DNA from: a virus
Lineage: Duplodnaviria; Heunggongvirae; Uroviricota; Caudoviricetes
IMG/VR virus record: IMGVR_UViG_2657245634_000013
Span: 1 to 12,094 of that record
DNA: 12,094 nucleotides
Direction: 5' to 3' (one strand)
Shown: one piece after another, positions 1 through 12,063 of the stretch
Numbering within the stretch: position 1 is the first letter of the stretch
How the letters are laid out: every line of letters begins with the position of its first letter
The notes under the pieces: generated by a model
Told to the model about the DNA's origin: nothing
The model's database searches: none
The model's input: only the letters and a program-made list of their open reading frames with translations
Program-made: the position numbers and the translations under genes

Positions 1-168
1 ATCATCGTAGTGAGCCAGTTGCCGGTGGAAAACTGGTACAAAATGATCGGAGACTCCACACATGCGGATGCCATCCTAGATCGACTGGTTCATGGCAGTA
101 TCAAGATCGAACTTAAAGGAGAATCAATGCGGAAAATACAATCTCCGTTGACCGAAGGAGATCAGTGA
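1..168 (+). CDS. IS21-family IstB-like helper ATPase, C-terminal fragment (5' end lies outside the window)
   Basis: Frame 1 is open from the window edge to TGA at 166-168 and translates to ...PVENWYKMIGDSTHADAILDRLVHGSIKIELKGESMRKIQSPLTEGDQ. The AILDRLxH ... KGESxR pattern is the conserved C-terminus of IstB proteins as I recall them. Not in the ORF track because it has no start codon in the window. Confidence 0.55.
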   Translation: MIVVSQLPVENWYKMIGDSTHADAILDRLVHGSIKIELKGESMRKIQSPLTEGDQ

Positions 169-253
169 AGGTAATTTAAAAACGGTTCTGTGAAAGTGAC
201 ACGAACCGATCTCCATCGATGTTACTCACCGATCTCCTTCACGGTAATACGCA
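1..253 (+). mobile_element. Right end of an IS21-family insertion sequence (istB 3' end plus terminal region); the exact terminus is uncertain, roughly 240-260
   Basis: IstB-like C-terminus followed by a non-coding stretch with the motif CCGATCTCC repeated directly at 215-223 and 232-240. Multiple subterminal repeats are typical of IS21-family ends. The terminus itself cannot be fixed without a reference copy. Confidence 0.4.
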
Positions 254-4464: not shown

Positions 4465-4616
4465 CGTTTCCAAAAAATCTCTCGGTCGATGACCTGATGG
4501 CGGATGTGGCAGTGATATTTCACTGGCCGCCATCAGAACTGTATCCCATGAGCCTGACCGAACTCATCACATGGCGCGAAAAGGCGCTCCGGCGAAGCGG
4601 AAACACGAATGAGTAA
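4189..4616 (+). CDS. Tail assembly chaperone frameshift product (P2 gpE+E'), made by -1 ribosomal frameshift at T_TTT_TTG (4437-4443)
   Basis: After a -1 slip at 4437-4443 the new frame stays open and reads ...FVAELGAVTFPKNLSVDDLMADVAVIFHWPPSELYPMSLTELITWREKALRRSGNTNE, ending at TAA 4614-4616 and overlapping the T start. This is the conserved E/E' (lambda G/GT-type) arrangement. Confidence 0.8.
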
Positions 4617-7056
4617 CAATGTAAAATTACAGGTATTGCTCAGGGCTGTTGACCAGGCATCCCGCCCGTTTAAATCCATCCGCACAGCGAGTAAGTCGCT
4701 GTCGGGGGATATCCGGGAAACACAAAAATCACTGCGCGAGCTGAACGGTCAGGCATCCCGTATTGAGGGATTCCGCAAGACCAGTGCACAGCTCGCCGTG
4801 ACTGGTCATGCACTTGAAAAGGCACGGCAGGAGGCCGAAGCCCTTGCCACACAGTTTAAAAATACCGAACGTCCGACCCGTGCTCAGGCGAAAGTGCTGG
4901 AATCCGCAAAGCGTGCGGCGGAGGACTTACAGGCGAAATATAACCGCCTGACGGATTCCGTTAAACGCCAGCAGCGGGAACTGGCCGCTGTGGGAATTAA
5001 TGCCCGCAATCTTGCACATGATGAGCAGGGACTGAAAAACCGTATCAGTGAAACCACCGCACAACTTAACCGTCAGCGCGACGCGCTGGCGCGTGTCAGT
5101 GCGCAACAGGCAAAACTTAACGCAGTAAAACAGCGTTATCAGGCCGGAAAGGAACTGGCCGGAAATATGGCCTCAGTAGGCGCTGCCGGTGTGGGGATTG
5201 CGGCGGCGGGAACGATGGCCGGAGTTAAGTTGCTGATGCCCGGTTATGAGTTTGCGCAGAAAAACTCAGAATTGCAGGCCGTGCTAGGTGTGGCAAAAGA
5301 CTCCGCCGAAATGGCTGCACTACGCAAGCAGGCGCGCCAGCTCGGCGACAACACCGCCGCCTCGGCGGATGATGCTGCCGGTGCACAGATTATTATCGCG
5401 AAAGCCGGTGGGGATGTTGATGCCATTCAGGCGGCAACGCCGGTCACGCTGAATATGGCGCTGGCGAACCGTCGCACGATGGAAGAAAACGCCGCCCTGC
5501 TGATGGGGATGAAATCCGCCTTTCAGCTTTCAAACGATAAGGTCGCTCATATCGGGGATGTTCTCTCCATGACGATGAACAAAACCGCCGCCGATTTTGA
5601 CGGCATGAGCGATGCGCTGACCTATGCCGCACCTGTGGCAAAAAATGCCGGTGTCAGCATTGAAGAAACCGCCGCAATGGTCGGGGCGCTGTATGATGCA
5701 AAAATCACAGGCTCAATGGCGGGGACGGGAAGCCGTGCCGTGTTAAGCCGCCTGCAGGCACCGACGGGAAAAGCATGGGATGCACTCAAAGAGCTTGGAG
5801 TGAAAACCTCAGACAGCAAGGGAAACACCCGACCAGTATTTACCATTCTGAAAGAAATGCAGGCCAGTTTTGAGAAAAACCGGCTCGGTACTGCCCAGCA
5901 GGCTGAATACATGAAAACTATTTTCGGGGAGGAGGCCAGCTCAGCCGCCGCCGTGCTGATGACTGCCGCCTCAACCGGAAAGCTGGACAAACTGACCGCT
6001 GCGTTTAAAGCCTCAGACGGGAAGACCGCCGAGCTGGTAAATATCATGCAGGACAACCTCGGCGGTGACTTTAAAGAGTTTCAGTCCGCTTATGAGGCGG
6101 TGGGGACTGACCTGTTTGACCAGCAGGAAGGCGCACTGCGTAAGCTCACGCAGACGGCCACAAAGTATGTGTTAAAACTCGACGGCTGGATACAGAAAAA
6201 CAAATCACTGGCGTCAACCATCGGCATCATTGTCGGTGGTGCACTGGCACTGATTGGTGTCATCGGTGCCATTGGCCTCGTAGCCTGGCCGGTTATCACC
6301 GGCATCAATGCCATCATCGCGGCAGCAGGCGCAATGGGGGCAGTCTTCACGACGGTTGGCAGTGCTGTTATGACCGCCATCGGGGCTATTAGCTGGCCGG
6401 TTGTGGCCGTGGTGGCCGCAATTGTCGCCGGGGCGTTGCTTATCCGTAAATACTGGGAGCCTGTCAGCACATTCTTTGGCGGTGTGGTGGAAGGGCTGAA
6501 AGCGGCATTTGCGCCGGTGGGGGAACTGTTCACGCCACTTAAGCCGGTGTTTGACTGGCTGGGCGAAAAGTTACAGGCCGCGTGGCAGTGGTTTAAAAAC
6601 CTGATCGCCCCGGTTAAAGCCATCCAGGACACCCTGAACCGTTGCCGTGACACGGGCGTCATGTTCGGGCAGGCACTGGCTGACGCGTTGATGCTGCCGC
6701 TTAATGCGTTCAACAAACTGCGCAGTGGTATTGACTGGGTACTGGAAAAACTCGGTGTTATCAACAAAGAGTCAGACACACTTGACCAGACCGCCGCCAG
6801 AACTCATGCCGCCACGTATGGCACCGGTGGTTATATTCCGGCGACCAGCTCTTATGCAGGCTATCAGGCTTATCAGCCGGTTACGGCACCGGCTGGCCGC
6901 TCTTATGTGGACCAGAGTAAAAACGAATATCACATCAGTCTGACGGGCGGTACTGCGCCGGGGACTCAGCTCGACCGCCAGTTACAGGATGCGCTCGAAA
7001 AATACGAGCGGGATAAACGTGCGCGCGCCCGTGCCAGCATGATGCATGACGGTTAA
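4609..7056 (+). CDS. T: Tail tape measure protein (P2 gpT)
   Basis: 815-aa ORF with an N-terminal coiled-coil-rich region and a long Gly/Ala-rich hydrophobic segment (aa about 530-600), typical of tape measure proteins. Same length and position as P2 T. Confidence 0.95.
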   Translation: MSNNVKLQVLLRAVDQASRPFKSIRTASKSLSGDIRETQKSLRELNGQASRIEGFRKTSAQLAVTGHALEKARQEAEALATQFKNTERPTRAQAKVLESAKRAAEDLQAKYNRLTDSVKRQQRELAAVGINARNLAHDEQGLKNRISETTAQLNRQRDALARVSAQQAKLNAVKQRYQAGKELAGNMASVGAAGVGIAAAGTMAGVKLLMPGYEFAQKNSELQAVLGVAKDSAEMAALRKQARQLGDNTAASADDAAGAQIIIAKAGGDVDAIQAATPVTLNMALANRRTMEENAALLMGMKSAFQLSNDKVAHIGDVLSMTMNKTAADFDGMSDALTYAAPVAKNAGVSIEETAAMVGALYDAKITGSMAGTGSRAVLSRLQAPTGKAWDALKELGVKTSDSKGNTRPVFTILKEMQASFEKNRLGTAQQAEYMKTIFGEEASSAAAVLMTAASTGKLDKLTAAFKASDGKTAELVNIMQDNLGGDFKEFQSAYEAVGTDLFDQQEGALRKLTQTATKYVLKLDGWIQKNKSLASTIGIIVGGALALIGVIGAIGLVAWPVITGINAIIAAAGAMGAVFTTVGSAVMTAIGAISWPVVAVVAAIVAGALLIRKYWEPVSTFFGGVVEGLKAAFAPVGELFTPLKPVFDWLGEKLQAAWQWFKNLIAPVKAIQDTLNRCRDTGVMFGQALADALMLPLNAFNKLRSGIDWVLEKLGVINKESDTLDQTAARTHAATYGTGGYIPATSSYAGYQAYQPVTAPAGRSYVDQSKNEYHISLTGGTAPGTQLDRQLQDALEKYERDKRARARASMMHDG

Positions 7057-9013: not shown

Positions 9014-9023
9014 TCACAAAAAT

Positions 9024-9050
9024 AGCCCCTCAGTTGAGGGGCTTTATTTA
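9024..9050 (+). terminator. Rho-independent terminator downstream of ogr
   Basis: Stem AGCCCCTC / GAGGGGCT with loop AGTT, followed by TTTATTTA, starting 11 bp after the ogr stop. Confidence 0.7.
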
Positions 9051-9056
9051 TGGTCG

Positions 9057-9075
9057 ATGTGGACGTTATGTGGAC
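9057..9075 (+). repeat. Tandem direct repeat ATGTGGAC-gtt-ATGTGGAC (11-bp spacing); candidate integrase arm-type binding sites in the prophage att arm
   Basis: Exact 8-bp repeat at 9057-9064 and 9068-9075, in non-coding DNA between the last phage gene and host sequence. Confidence 0.45.
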
Positions 9076-9081
9076 AGTGGT

Positions 9082-9103
9082 TGATATAAATCCATTTATA
9101 TCA
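9082..9103. repeat. Perfect 10-bp inverted repeat TGATATAAAT-cc-ATTTATATCA in the att region
   Basis: Exact palindrome read directly from the sequence; AT-rich; lies between the direct repeats and the host-like terminator. Confidence 0.6.
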
Positions 9104-9111
9104 TCAGGTTA

Positions 9112-9168
9112 GGTGCTTTTTTGTGACACCATCCCTGTCTTCCCCCACATGATGTGGGGGTTTTTTTT
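9112..9168 (+). ncRNA. Possible CpxQ-like sRNA remnant (3' UTR of cpxP); 5' boundary uncertain
   Basis: Terminator hairpin plus upstream GACACCATCCCTGTCTTCCCCC, recalled as the conserved part of CpxQ; no cpxP coding sequence is visible upstream, consistent with the prophage junction lying at the cpxP 3' end. This is from memory and unverified. Confidence 0.35.
9142..9168 (+). terminator. Rho-independent terminator, probably the host cpxP terminator (3' end of the CpxQ sRNA region)
   Basis: Stem CCCCCACAT / ATGTGGGGG followed by eight T residues. The preceding GACACCATCCCTGTCTTCCCCC matches my recollection of the cpxP 3' UTR / CpxQ, and fieF lies directly downstream as in the E. coli cpxP-fieF arrangement. 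Confidence 0.6.
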
Positions 9169-9249
9169 ATCCTCAATTTGCCTGCTGCTTAATGCATTGC
9201 AGATGATTTGCTTCCGTTATACTAGCGTCAGTTGATAGCGGGAGTATTT

Positions 9250-9867
9250 ATGAATCAATCTTATGGACGGCTGGTCAGTCGGGCGGCGATTGCTGCGACG
9301 GCGATGGCTTCGTTGCTATTGCTGATTAAAATTTTTGCATGGTGGTATACCGGGTCGGTGAGTATTCTCGCCGCGCTGGTGGATTCGCTGGTGGATATCG
9401 GCGCGTCGTTGACGAATTTACTGGTGGTGCGATATTCCCTGCAACCTGCCGACGATAATCACTCGTTTGGTCACGGTAAAGCAGAGTCCCTCGCGGCGCT
9501 GGCGCAAAGTATGTTTATCTCCGGTTCGGCACTATTCCTGTTTTTGACGGGTATTCAACATCTGATATCTCCAACACCGATGACAGATCCAGGCGTCGGG
9601 GTTATCGTGACAATTGTGGCGCTAATTTGTACGATTATCCTTGTCTCGTTTCAGCGTTGGGTGGTGCGCCGGACGCAAAGCCAGGCGGTGCGGGCTGATA
9701 TGCTACATTACCAGTCTGATGTTATGATGAACGGCGCAATTCTGCTGGCGCTGGGGTTGTCCTGGTACGGCTGGCATCGCGCCGATGCTCTGTTTGCATT
9801 GGGAATCGGCATCTATATTTTATATAGCGCGTTACGCATGGGATATGAGGCGGTACAGTCATTACTG
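9250..9867 (+). pseudogene. fieF: Cation-diffusion-facilitator ferrous iron/zinc efflux protein FieF (YiiP), 3'-truncated after about codon 206
   Basis: [86 protein letters not shown]... matches FieF up to ...[10 protein letters not shown]; GGAG RBS at 9242-9245. After about 9867 the frame continues only as antisense read-through of the autotransporter gene, and the cytoplasmic C-terminal domain (expected DRALPDEERQ...) is absent. Confidence 0.85.
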
Positions 9868-12063
9868 GCTGTGACCATTCATATCCAGTTCAGTCTCTGC
9901 CGCCAGACGCAGTTCATGGGTATTACCCAACACGTTATCGTTATTCAACAAAAGCGTCCCACTGCGCAGATCGGTAACACCGGTATAGTCGTTGTCTTTG
10001 TTAGAAAGCGATACGGTCTGACCCTTCTGGCTGCTGAATGCCAGGTCACCACTGCCGGTAATCTTTGCGCTGAGATCGGCGGCATTCTCGCTTTTACCGT
10101 TAGAGCTCAGCACCAGAGCATCGCTGTCGGTAGCGTGTAAATCAAGCTGGGTCAGGCCGTAACCGATATACAGACCGTCATTGTTTACCCCACTCGTCAG
10201 ACGATAGTCGTAAGTGCCGACGGCCGCTTTTTGCCCATTCTGCTGAATATCACGTTGGGCACTGCTGGAGAGGATTTGCCCATTTTTATCCTGCAATTGC
10301 AGATTGCCCGCATCGCCCAGAACTTCCGCACCTTGCGCATCAACCAACTTAATGGTGCTGTTACCATCATCGACTTCAGTGAGCGATAACGCAGAGTCAA
10401 TATCACGAGATACTGAGCTTACAACGTCACTGTCAGAAACCTGAATCACACCCTCGCCGCGCAAATCCAGCGTTTTACTAACGTTGACCGTCCCTTCTGT
10501 CATCTGTGCACCTGCTGTCAGGGCACCAAAATCAACGGTTCCGCCGGAGAATCCCAAAGTGCTAATGGAGTGAGCGCCCTTACCCACTATTACCTGGCTT
10601 CCCTGACCCGCAGTGATCCCGCCTCTCTGCAGAAACTCAGCATTCTTTTCCAGGTTAAATGTCGTGTTCTGGAACGCCAGTGAACCCTGGAACCAGTCTG
10701 TATAAGCAAACTCATCGAAGGAGAATTCGTGATTCCCCATGTTTATTTCAACAATACCTCTACCTTGAAGATCGTTATCAAATACCCAATCTTTATTGGC
10801 ATTGATTTGCAGTTTGCCATCAACATCCAGGTCCGCACGGCCGATGTTCTTGTCTTCAGAAATAACCGCGACAGCACCAGAAGCGACATCAATATATCCG
10901 CTGAATGCATAGTTATTGCCGGTCAGTGCCACTGTCCCACTGTCGATACTTATTGTACCATTGCCGGAAATCTTATTGGCAAAGGTCATGCTATCGTCAG
11001 CCTTCAGGTGTAATTTCCCGCGGTTGTTGATCTCTGCTGTACCTATATTTTGGGTGATCCCTAAAGCGCCATTTTGCTCAATTTTGACTTTACCACTAAA
11101 GGCAGAGTTATCACCGGTTAAGTAAGTCGTGCCATTGAGCGCATTGATATAGCCCAGGCCCTCGCTGCCACTGACAATATCCGCGGAAATAGTCGCGTTT
11201 TTATCCGTGTGGTTTAAGGTGATTTTCTTATCGGATGTCTTTGCCCACACAAACTCAATTTTTTCGGCATCAATAATCCCTGCAGCCTTCGCAGCACTTC
11301 CTTCCTGTGCACCTAACGCTAACTCAGAGTTGGTGCTTAAACTAATTTTCGGTGCGGATATTTTACCTCCATCTGATACGACTAATGTTGTATCAGAACG
11401 TTGGTCGTAATAACCCAGGCTAATATGTTCACGAGCATTAACTTCACCGCCGTTATTAACTGACAGGTACTGATTACCACCGTAACTGCCGTAAACGCCC
11501 ATAAAGAAGGTTTTAGAATTTACCTGGCTGCCTTCACCACTGACATTTCCCTGCAAATAGGTCAGACGGCTGGTGCCCTTAACATGGATTTTGCCGCCGT
11601 TGGAGACATTAAAATAGCCGCGATCGTGTCTCATGCCTGAGTTTGACTCATACAAATCATCAGCATATAACTCGCTGCCAGCATTGGAGACATTCAGGAA
11701 CCCCGTACCTTTCAGCAAAAAGTTAAGTGGGCCATTGATAGTTACCTTTCCTCCGGTAATATCCAACCCACCACCAGAAGCGAGAGTCAGACGCGGACGG
11801 GAAGTATCTGTCGCATTGATTACCAGATTGGCATTGTCAGTCACCGTAATACGGTAATCGATGCTCTGGTTCTCTTTGCCAAAATCAATAGTTTTATCCT
11901 GGTTTACGATGACATCATCGGCGAATACCAGAGATGAATATAAACTTATCGCGCTAATTAAAACAGCCCGGGACTTTTTTCCTTTTACTCTGCTCCCCAG
12001 CTCCGAGCAGACGCTCCAACAGTTACGGGACCTGTTCCACTTTAGCCGATATATTTTATTCAT
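9862..12063 (-). pseudogene. Autotransporter adhesin (type Va), signal peptide plus beta-helical passenger domain, 3'-truncated (no beta-barrel translocator)
   Basis: N-terminus MNKIYRLKWNRSRNCWSVCSELGSRVKGKKS... is an extended signal peptide region (ESPR) typical of autotransporters, followed by a Gly/Asn/Ser/Thr-rich repetitive passenger (GNxxxSG-type beta-helix repeats). The ORF ends ...ELDMNGHSQ with its stop codon supplied by fieF-derived sequence at 9862-9864. Lower GC than the flanking sequence. The likely start is the ATG at 12061-12063, not the track start at 12087. Confidence 0.75.

Follow-up and report, generated by a model that had tools for sequence, protein, structure and literature searches.

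Gene Content of the Contig

The window, that is, the whole stretch of DNA analysed, is the entire 12,094-nt contig CCBW01000016.1 of the fragmented draft Escherichia coli assembly GCA_000939035.1. It runs from an insertion sequence end through a P2-like prophage and a short host segment into two truncated genes that face each other, fieF and ehaA (Table 1). The left contig end lies in the 3' end of an IS21-family element, which includes the last 55 amino acids of IstB (positions 1–168), and is an assembly break induced by this repeat. With the IstB end fragment as a query, only the window itself was returned from GCA_000939035.1. The prophage carries a gene for a serine recombinase similar to the Cin/Gin invertases (1758–2351) and ends directly left of a cpxQ remnant, at about position 9125; this right end is intact and identical to that of the relatives. 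At 9125, corresponding to position 6345 of the K-12 locus L004 inside cpxQ, homology to K-12 picks up again, and a terminator scan located the terminator hairpin of the cpxQ remnant at 9142–9160. Normal host DNA extends for 743 nt between the prophage end and the joint of the two genes. The right contig end coincides with the start of the AT-rich ehaA–betT spacer of about 570 nt, where the DNA is unique. At gathering thresholds, no Rfam family matched the window, and the accession prefixes and assembly identifiers turned up no publication when the literature was searched.

Table 1. Features of contig CCBW01000016.1 around the fieF–ehaA joint and at the contig ends.
Feature	Position	Strand	Evidence
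IS21-family element, 3' end	1–250	+	Gene calls, Pfam PF01695, ISEc12 annotation in H33
Host DNA 5' of fieF: cpxP 3'UTR/cpxQ 3' remnant and fieF leader	9125–9249	+	
fieF 5' part: codons 1–206 and first base of codon 207	9250–9868	+	Alignment, Pfam
Quasi-palindrome created by the join	9841–9886		Repeat search; DNA fold; random-join simulation
TAA closing the truncated ehaA frame, from antisense fieF	9862–9864	-	Translation ends ...NGHSQ, then two stops
ehaA 5' part: codons 1–733 of 1327	9865–12063	-	DNA identity, Pfam
CTGG microhomology, sole bases common to both parents at the joint	9865–9868		Alignment with fieF and antisense ehaA
Read-through of the fieF frame into antisense ehaA: 90 non-native codons and stop (10138–10140)	9869–10140	+	Translation, ORF list
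ehaA upstream segment, 31 nt 5' of the ehaA start codon	12064–12094	-	

The fieF part is 100% identical in DNA to the intact fieF of three related contigs (L007, L010, and L011) up to position 9868. Of FieF (also YiiP), a metal exporter of the CDF type, the remnant keeps the whole six-helix transmembrane Cation_efflux domain (PF01545, residues 14–206, E = 7e-51). The cytoplasmic ZT_dimer domain (PF16916), which serves in dimerisation and metal binding and is located at residues 210–287 in the intact L007 protein, was not found by Pfam in the 296-aa open reading frame of the window. The FieF remnant thus lacks a C-terminal domain that is required for function. The length of the fused frame mimics that of native FieF (300 aa), and the frame is not called as a gene in the public gene calls of the contig. 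The absence of pfkA downstream of fieF, pointed out in an earlier reading made from the sequence only, is real and is explained by the end of the contig.

EhaA, encoded in O157:H7 by OI-15 (z0402/ECs_0362), is an AIDA-I-type autotransporter adhesin with a role in aggregation, biofilm formation and adhesion (PMC8565820). In the window its gene starts with an ATG at 12063–12061 and breaks after codon 733. At least 15 complete genomes carry an intact ehaA that matches the ehaA part at 100% over 2230 nt, and the fragment shows 97.1% DNA identity to ECs_0362 of strain Sakai. The N-terminal passenger is present, and the ESPR signal peptide (PF13018, residues 1–38) is the sole Pfam domain kept. The AC_1 autochaperone and the autotransporter beta-domain (PF03797), found by Pfam at residues 839–944 and 1046–1305 of intact EhaA, are both absent from the remnant, which ends at residue 733. 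Unlike the O157:H7 protein, the window copy is thus devoid of the autochaperone and of the beta-barrel translocator, which are needed for function.

Organization of the fieF–ehaA Junction

Base-by-base alignment showed that the window equals intact fieF through 9868, with the first mismatch at 9869; from 9865 on, it equals intact ehaA read in antisense. The abrupt join of the two genes is truly present in the sequence, and its earlier description is accurate to the base. The sequence-only reading had described FieF homology ending after ...EAVQSLL (9867), followed by the antisense strand of an autotransporter passenger, with both genes incomplete; alignment and Pfam agree with each of these points. 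Its statement that the ehaA frame stops two codons past the junction, on a stop codon derived from fieF, holds with the junction placed at 9868/9869. No full-length FieF alignment through 9868–10150, the finding that would have spoken against the breakpoint, was obtained, the fieF match being broken at 9869. The flanks, 9.9 kb on one side and 2.2 kb on the other, are error-free and contain no Ns up to the joint.

Two structural features mark the joint. The first is the 4-nt microhomology; an overlap of at least 4 nt had a probability of 0.017 in 200,000 simulated random joins. The second is a quasi-palindrome whose 21-nt arms, one in fieF (9841–9861) and the other in antisense ehaA (9866–9886), are complementary at 15 of 21 positions and enclose a 4-nt loop, with the junction at the tip of the hairpin. 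The DNA fold of this structure has an energy of -12.1 kcal/mol (z -1.76). A junction-centred quasi-palindrome of this kind arose with P ~0.0008 in 20,000 random fieF × ehaA joins, the statistic having been picked post hoc. The combination of microhomology and the tip of a quasi-palindrome is a signature of polymerase template switching. Apart from this structure, itself made by the join, no repeat family touches 9865–9868, and alignment and repeat search revealed there neither an IS end nor a target-site duplication, a long repeat or a sequence resembling a recombinase crossover site. The earlier impression that nothing was visible at the joint was hence correct for IS ends, duplications and long repeats, but overlooked the microhomology and the junction-centred quasi-palindrome. 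The fieF read-through frame, and the fact that the window equals a complete draft contig, were likewise missed in that reading.

These features bear on two possible origins of the joint. A blind concatenation of unrelated contigs, whether by N-less scaffolding, a submission error or blunt ligation, would involve no sequence-directed step. It would suit a joint seen in a single contig of a poor assembly, but among simulated random blunt joins only 1.7% overlap by 4 nt or more and only 0.08% show a 15/21 inverted repeat centred on the junction, and the start of the ehaA piece matches no natural contig end of the other assemblies seen. This origin is considered very unlikely. A mobile element or recombinase could also be suspected, namely IS21/ISEc12, the Cin/Gin-like serine invertase of the prophage acting on pseudo-sites, or aberrant P2 excision; in a variant of this scheme, an earlier repeat-mediated inversion was followed by a local deletion fusing fieF to ehaA. 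The presence of an IS21 end and of a serine recombinase gene on the contig, and of a prophage abutting fieF, would be in line with such an event. Against it stand the lack of any element end, target-site duplication or crossover-like site at 9865–9868, where the parents share CTGG only, the intact right end of the prophage with host DNA following it before the joint, and the megabase inversion that would still be required. Recombination by IS, at P2 att or at Cin/Gin pseudo-sites was consequently rejected, with no element end or core-like site at hand and the prophage 743 nt away, and the route as a whole appears extremely improbable.

Occurrence of the Junction in Other Genomes

The parental loci are far apart and co-oriented in normal genomes, at a distance of 0.87–0.97 Mb. 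In O157 Sakai, fieF (4,906,556) and ehaA (379,735) both lie on the plus strand, about 0.97 Mb apart across the origin of the record; in K-12, the plus strand also carries fieF as well as betT and pdeL, the genes on either side of the ehaA site. Both loci presumably belong to one replichore, the clockwise one, according to the oriC and terminus positions that we assume for K-12. Since the parental loci are co-oriented, the convergent joining of the fieF and ehaA 5' parts is an inversion-type junction, and a real event on this replichore would be a repeat-free megabase inversion rather than a deletion. A deletion, which the sequence-only reading had listed together with inversion and mis-assembly, is ruled out by this orientation.

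No place spanning the junction was found in 5,426 complete E. coli genomes, and a 24-nt junction string had no matches in GTDB genome contigs (representative genomes) and JGI metagenome contigs. Among 153 billion gene positions, neither the exact 733-aa EhaA remnant nor the exact 296-aa FieF fusion occurred on any other contig.

A precise inversion would also create a reciprocal junction, hypothetically modelled as ...GCGTGCCCACGGTCTGG|ATCGCGCATTGCCTGATG..., in which the antisense ehaA 3' part is joined to the fieF 3' part. Its predicted EhaA 3' products (621, 605, and 593 aa) were not present in the protein collection, which is a weak test, because the C-terminal part of EhaA was taken from the allele of a different strain. 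The predicted FieF 3' products were present, the 91-aa form on 6 contigs and the 79-aa form on 7 contigs. By our own rough estimate, some six contigs is about the number expected from unrelated fieF disruptions. A 34-aa open reading frame at the 3' end of fieF occurs on at least 1000 contigs.

Several other contigs contain the same prophage and fieF 5' region. L007, L010, and L011 are 100.000% identical to the window for 6.8–8.2 kb, up to exactly position 9868, and L008 is 99.99% identical. Past this position, fieF is complete in all four and is followed by intact pfkA and sbp. One such relative, CCBX01, belongs to an ENA accession series neighbouring that of CCBW01; the accession series and the sequence identity suggest that the related assemblies come from one batch. 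These assemblies break within unique sequence, in the tail-sheath gene, gpD, and sbp. In a sibling contig, CDRU01000003.1, the first 36 nt derive from tdh, and an 11-nt stretch with five Ns links them to the middle of the tail-sheath gene. This join is also strand-switching and private, and it lies in a 7/11 direct similarity; no hairpin above background was found at it (10–11/21). The sibling assembly demonstrates that chimeric contig ends occur within the batch.

Origin of the Junction

The joint is probably a sequencing or assembly chimera in the contig and not a rearrangement of the chromosome. This conclusion is favoured by the private nature of the join, by the intact state of fieF in relatives identical up to the joint, and by the second chimeric end in the sibling assembly. 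It is further favoured by the course of the contig, which runs from an IS end into AT-rich unique DNA while related assemblies break in unique sequence, and by the character of the alternative real event, a 0.87–0.97 Mb inversion within one replichore that has no repeats at its ends. Among the three origins proposed earlier, mis-assembly is thus the best supported, and inversion is disfavoured by the private join and the intact relatives.

The 4-nt microhomology (p = 0.017) and the quasi-palindrome (p ~0.0008) fit a chimera made by polymerase strand switching, and we infer that such a switch took place in vitro. The switch would date from the amplification of the DNA or the making of the library, with the assembler as a less likely source. 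A nascent strand of fieF plus-strand sequence ending in ...CTGG-3' may have left its template, re-primed on CCAG of the ehaA sense strand and been extended backwards, yielding a molecule in which the fieF 5' part is joined to the antisense ehaA 5' part. The 21 nt that adjoin the breakpoint in ehaA (GGATATGAATGGTCACAGCCA) are similar to the sequence that adjoins the breakpoint in fieF (GGATATGAGGCGGTACAGTCA); owing to this similarity, the ehaA strand could have mis-annealed to the fieF template before its displacement. It is proposed that the likeness of the two breakpoint sequences is the reason why the product is quasi-palindromic with the junction at the tip. The chimeric molecule would then have bridged two contig ends in a fragmented assembly of probably low or uneven coverage. 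In the true genome, fieF–pfkA would be undisrupted beside the prophage, and ehaA would lie undisrupted between betT and pdeL.

Comparable products are known from in vitro DNA synthesis. Chimeras formed in multiple displacement amplification (MDA) are mostly inverted and primed on 2–21 nt of complementarity, and they also connect, in both orientations, segments separated by over 10 kb (Lasken and Stockwell, 2007; PMC1855051). Library-preparation chimeras link opposite strands at imperfect inverted or palindromic sequences, as described by the PDSM model (PMC10908179). Like these, the fieF–ehaA joint connects opposite strands of non-adjacent segments through a short complementarity, here of 4 nt, is an imperfect inverted repeat, and is private to one data set. 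In most described in vitro strand-switch chimeras, by contrast, the two segments come from one locus or lie within 10 kb of each other, and the parents of this joint are ~0.9 Mb apart; intermolecular cases beyond 10 kb are reported but rarer. Another difference is that this one went beyond single reads and reached a 12-kb consensus contig, and the MDA and library chemistry serves here as an analogy.

Several observations nevertheless count against a chimera. The long clean flanks are more than a read-end overhang of the kind seen in L010. A de Bruijn-graph assembler that meets a low-frequency chimeric edge normally breaks there or takes the true path of higher coverage; the uninterrupted contig would therefore suggest that the normal continuation of fieF was absent from the reads. 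Microhomology is a hallmark of genuine illegitimate recombination too. The 91- and 79-aa FieF C-terminal products, which the reciprocal junction should yield, are present in the protein collection.

The same observations would be accommodated by a genuine, private chromosomal inversion of ~0.9–1 Mb with endpoints in fieF and ehaA, produced by repeat-independent, microhomology-mediated recombination or by a FoSTeS/MMBIR-like process. In this case, a nascent leading strand at fieF (CTGG-3') would re-prime on a single-stranded lagging-strand template at ehaA, both genes would be inactivated, and the window would contain one of two junctions. The clean, N-free joint, flanked on each side by DNA of 100% identity, the non-random microhomology and the orientation of the two genes are as expected, and so is the polarity of the template switch if both loci are on the clockwise replichore, as we take them to be in K-12. 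Both hit genes are dispensable; of the 5,426 complete genomes, 4,023 have no ehaA. Microhomology, a strand switch, intragenic breakpoints on both sides and the lack of repeats and mobile element ends are traits shared with in vivo illegitimate recombination of the FoSTeS/MMBIR type. The case differs from such events in that the relatives are unrearranged and that the megabase size and position within one replichore are unusual for a surviving natural isolate.

Further points argue against the inversion. No second genome or contig shows the junction, fieF is undisrupted in the relatives whose prophage and fieF 5' sequences are identical, the three EhaA 3' products are missing from the collection in the weak test described above, and chimeric contig ends occur in the batch. 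After the inversion, rpoBC and several rrn operons would also be transcribed against the direction of replication. To our knowledge, large natural inversions in E. coli almost always occur between IS, rrn or prophage repeats and are symmetric about the replication axis, which this one would not match. It resembles the repeat-mediated inversions of E. coli and Shigella in its large inversion-type junction and in the disruption of synteny at the P2-like prophage/fieF region, but has no homologous inverted repeats at the endpoints. A genuine inversion is therefore regarded as unlikely, although it is the most probable of the alternatives. Its more specific form, in which a template switch from one replication fork to a distant one, involving the 4-nt re-priming and the 21-nt imperfect similarity, produced an inversion of ~0.9–1 Mb, is also rather doubtful.

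Implications

If the joint is a chimera, the contig is unusable as evidence for a fieF or ehaA pseudogene, for a structural variant or for a break in synteny. Such a chimera evades simple quality checks, because the fused fieF frame is almost as long as the native one and the flanks are error-free. If the joint is a true inversion, it would represent a rare megabase, repeat-free, intra-replichore case in a wild E. coli, hinting at fork-to-fork template switching. It would then be of interest for chromosome plasticity, yet as a single private event, in which a CDF exporter is cut exactly at a domain boundary and an adhesin loses its secretion module.

Structure of the fieF/ehaA Joint

The window is identical to the complete contig CCBW01000016.1 (12,094 nt) of the NCBI draft assembly GCA_000939035.1. 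Near its right end, the 5' part of fieF is fused to the antisense of the 5' part of an autotransporter gene. Base-by-base alignment with intact fieF (loci L002, L004, L007) and intact ehaA (loci L001, L016) shows that fieF identity reaches base 9868, while antisense ehaA identity begins at base 9865. The sole bases common to both parents at the joint are CTGG, with no in-register similarity beyond. FieF thus ends after codon 206 (...EAVQSLL), and the ehaA frame is closed by a TAA (9864-9862) originating from antisense fieF. The sequence-only reading, which had placed the end of FieF homology at about 9867, followed by an antisense passenger domain with a fieF-derived stop and two incomplete genes, is borne out on all these points.

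Features of contig CCBW01000016.1
Feature	Position	Comment
IS21-family element, last ~250 nt	1-250	3' end, ISEc12-like; IstB C-terminus (last 55 aa) at 1-168
P2-like prophage late/tail region		invertible tail-fibre segment, serine recombinase, sheath, tube, tape measure, gpU, gpD, Ogr
Tail-fibre/tail-fibre-assembly segment	254-1702	
Serine recombinase gene	1758-2351	
Tape measure gene	4609-7056	
P2-like prophage right end	~9125	K-12 homology resumes there, inside cpxP 3'UTR/cpxQ
fieF	start 9250	
ehaA, first 733 codons, antisense	9865-12063	
ehaA upstream DNA		31 nt, up to contig end

Both fragments are ordinary genes: fieF encodes a YiiP-type CDF exporter, and ehaA is the AIDA-I-type autotransporter adhesin of OI-15 (PMC8565820). 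According to Pfam, the FieF remnant retains the full Cation_efflux domain (14-206) and lacks ZT_dimer, located at 210-287 in the intact protein, so that the break falls exactly at the boundary between the membrane and cytoplasmic domains. Of EhaA, nothing but the ESPR signal peptide and a portion of the passenger is left; AC_1 (839-944) and the beta-barrel (1046-1305) are lost. With a defining domain gone from each, neither remnant would be predicted to be a functional member of its family. Past the joint, the fieF frame stays open in antisense ehaA for another 90 codons, until a stop at 10138-10140, giving an ORF of 296 aa (9250-10140) versus 300 aa for native FieF; a length-based annotation check would miss such a truncation. 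Public gene calls of the contig omit this ORF because a 743-aa antisense call overlaps it.

The Prophage and Its Closest Relatives

The P2-like prophage is located between cpxP and fieF, as its right-end region (9014-9250) shows. Since K-12 homology restarts within the cpxP 3'UTR/cpxQ sRNA, the prophage right end includes the 3' part of cpxQ as a copy, with the terminator hairpin (9142-9160); an Rfam scan of the window gave no match at the gathering score. Two Logan contigs stop at 9154, which agrees with a duplicated att core. The IS21-family element sits in the tail-fibre region, and the same IS-end fragment opens contigs of several other assemblies. The tail-fibre segment is inverted relative to contig WNTQ01000012.1 (99.6% identity on the opposite strand), and in CDRY01000167.1 it is joined to the N-terminal part of tail-fibre H and baseplate genes, not to the serine recombinase. 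These arrangements suggest a Cin/Gin-like invertible segment for host range, caught in both orientations.

The exact tape-measure protein is rare, being present on 19 contigs, four of which reach fieF: WNTQ01000012.1 (122 kb), a metagenome scaffold, CDRU01000003.1 and CCBX01000079.1. Their identity to the window, over 6.8-8.2 kb ending exactly at base 9868, is 100.000% (99.99% for the metagenome scaffold). Beyond this base all four carry intact fieF, pfkA and sbp, and there CDRU01000003.1 and CCBX01000079.1 have zero mismatches to WNTQ01000012.1. At least 15 complete genomes carry an intact ehaA, in the normal betT-ehaA-pdeL context, that matches the ehaA half at 100% identity over 2,230 nt. 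As both halves match intact loci elsewhere, they are ordinary E. coli DNA, and only the join is unusual.

Among 5,426 complete E. coli genomes, the fieF half is matched in all and the ehaA half in 1,403, and no locus spans the joint. The 24-nt junction string was found neither in GTDB representative genomes nor in JGI metagenome contigs, and among 153 billion gene positions neither the truncated EhaA nor the FieF fusion protein is encoded by any other contig. C-terminal FieF products of 91 aa, starting with TTG at codon 210, and of 79 aa are on record in NCBI and ENA, on six and seven contigs, respectively. This implies that in a few assemblies the fieF frame is closed a short way before codon 210; such contigs are possible carriers of a reciprocal junction. 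In NCBI, a number of partial FieF fragments of E. coli (the cluster of P0003-P0012) bear the title "XdhC family protein, partial," apparently a misnomer passed on from fragment to fragment.

Origin of the Joint

In O157 Sakai, fieF (4,906,556-4,907,458) and ehaA (ECs_0362, 379,735-383,718) both lie on the plus strand, with about 0.97 Mb between them when counted through the record origin; in K-12, fieF and betT/pdeL, which flank the ehaA site, also share one orientation and are about 0.87 Mb apart. Given this co-orientation, the convergent joint is an inversion-type junction, and a simple deletion is ruled out. Among the inversion, deletion and mis-assembly proposed from the sequence alone, gene orientation in the reference genomes removes deletion, and mis-assembly or a chimera is the likeliest, ahead of inversion.

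Alignment and repeat search at the joint revealed neither a homologous inverted repeat nor an IS end, a target duplication or an att/cix-like site. The hallmark of a repeat- or element-mediated inversion is missing, and the prophage end and the joint are 743 nt apart, with normal host DNA in between. An IS-, phage- or recombinase-mediated route is poorly supported and extremely improbable.

The earlier reading was correct that IS ends and duplications are absent; an inverted repeat, which it had also denied, does exist in imperfect form. The join creates a quasi-palindrome with arms at 9841-9861 (GGATATGAGGCGGTACAGTCA, fieF) and 9866-9886 (TGGCTGTGACCATTCATATCC, antisense ehaA), complementary at 15/21 positions around a 4-nt loop; the junction lies at the tip of the hairpin. 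Equivalently, the fieF and ehaA sense strands share an imperfect 21-nt direct similarity ending at their breakpoints. An equally good junction-centred inverted repeat occurs in 0.08% of 20,000 random joins, a statistic picked post hoc, so that the true significance is weaker, perhaps about 0.01. At least four ambiguous bases, as in the observed 4-nt microhomology, occur in 1.7% of 200,000 simulated fieF/antisense ehaA joins. Both the microhomology and the quasi-palindrome are non-random features; blind concatenation is poorly supported and improbable.

A polymerase template switch could account for this anatomy. The ehaA sense strand may have mis-annealed to the fieF template via the 15/21 similarity and then been displaced, whereupon the nascent fieF plus strand, with its CTGG-3' end, would have re-primed on CCAG of the ehaA sense strand. 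The join behaves like known strand-switch chimeras. More than 85% of MDA chimeras are inverted, with priming on 2-21 nt, and in 127 of 475 the two segments came from sites over 10 kb apart (PMC1855051); in chimeric reads from library preparation, opposite strands become linked where there are imperfect inverted or palindromic sequences (PMC10908179).

The identical prophage is present in four ENA-series assemblies (CCBW01, CCBX01, CDRU01, CDRY01), on contigs of 6.8-12 kb, several of which stop in unique sequence, within the sheath gene, gpD or sbp. The right end of the window, too, is not at a repeat: it coincides with the start of an AT-rich spacer of roughly 570 nt. The accession series and the sequence identity suggest that they form one batch; a literature search found no paper naming them. 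Positions 1-47 of CDRU01000003.1 consist of 36 nt of tdh and 11 nt with five Ns, followed by the middle of the tail-sheath gene. In K-12, tdh is single-copy, on the opposite strand and about 0.3 Mb from fieF. This join, at 7/11 similarity, is the second private one with a strand switch in about 44 kb of lineage contig sequence (five contigs), and its Ns show that reads disagreed there. The ends of CDRU01000003.1 (9127) and CCBX01000079.1 (8923), from two independent assemblies, both lie in the unique gene sbp, at most 26 nt apart, in the part that codes for ...FLVRKGNPK...; the cause may be some short stretch common to sbp and its paralogue cysP, breaking a small-k assembly graph.

A genuine private inversion is unlikely. 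In its favour, both flanks of the joint are long and clean, a graph assembler does not normally take a rare chimeric edge where coverage of the true continuation is good, and microhomology-mediated template switching in vivo could formally give the same anatomy. The K-12 chromosome has oriC near 3.93 Mb and the terminus near 1.6 Mb; both endpoints lie on the clockwise replichore, so that the inversion would be intra-replichore and would leave rpoBC and several rrn operons oriented head-on to replication.

The joint is most readily explained as a chimeric contig of a fragmented assembly, in which an in-vitro strand-switch molecule probably bridged two contig ends. On this reading it is not a real biological feature.
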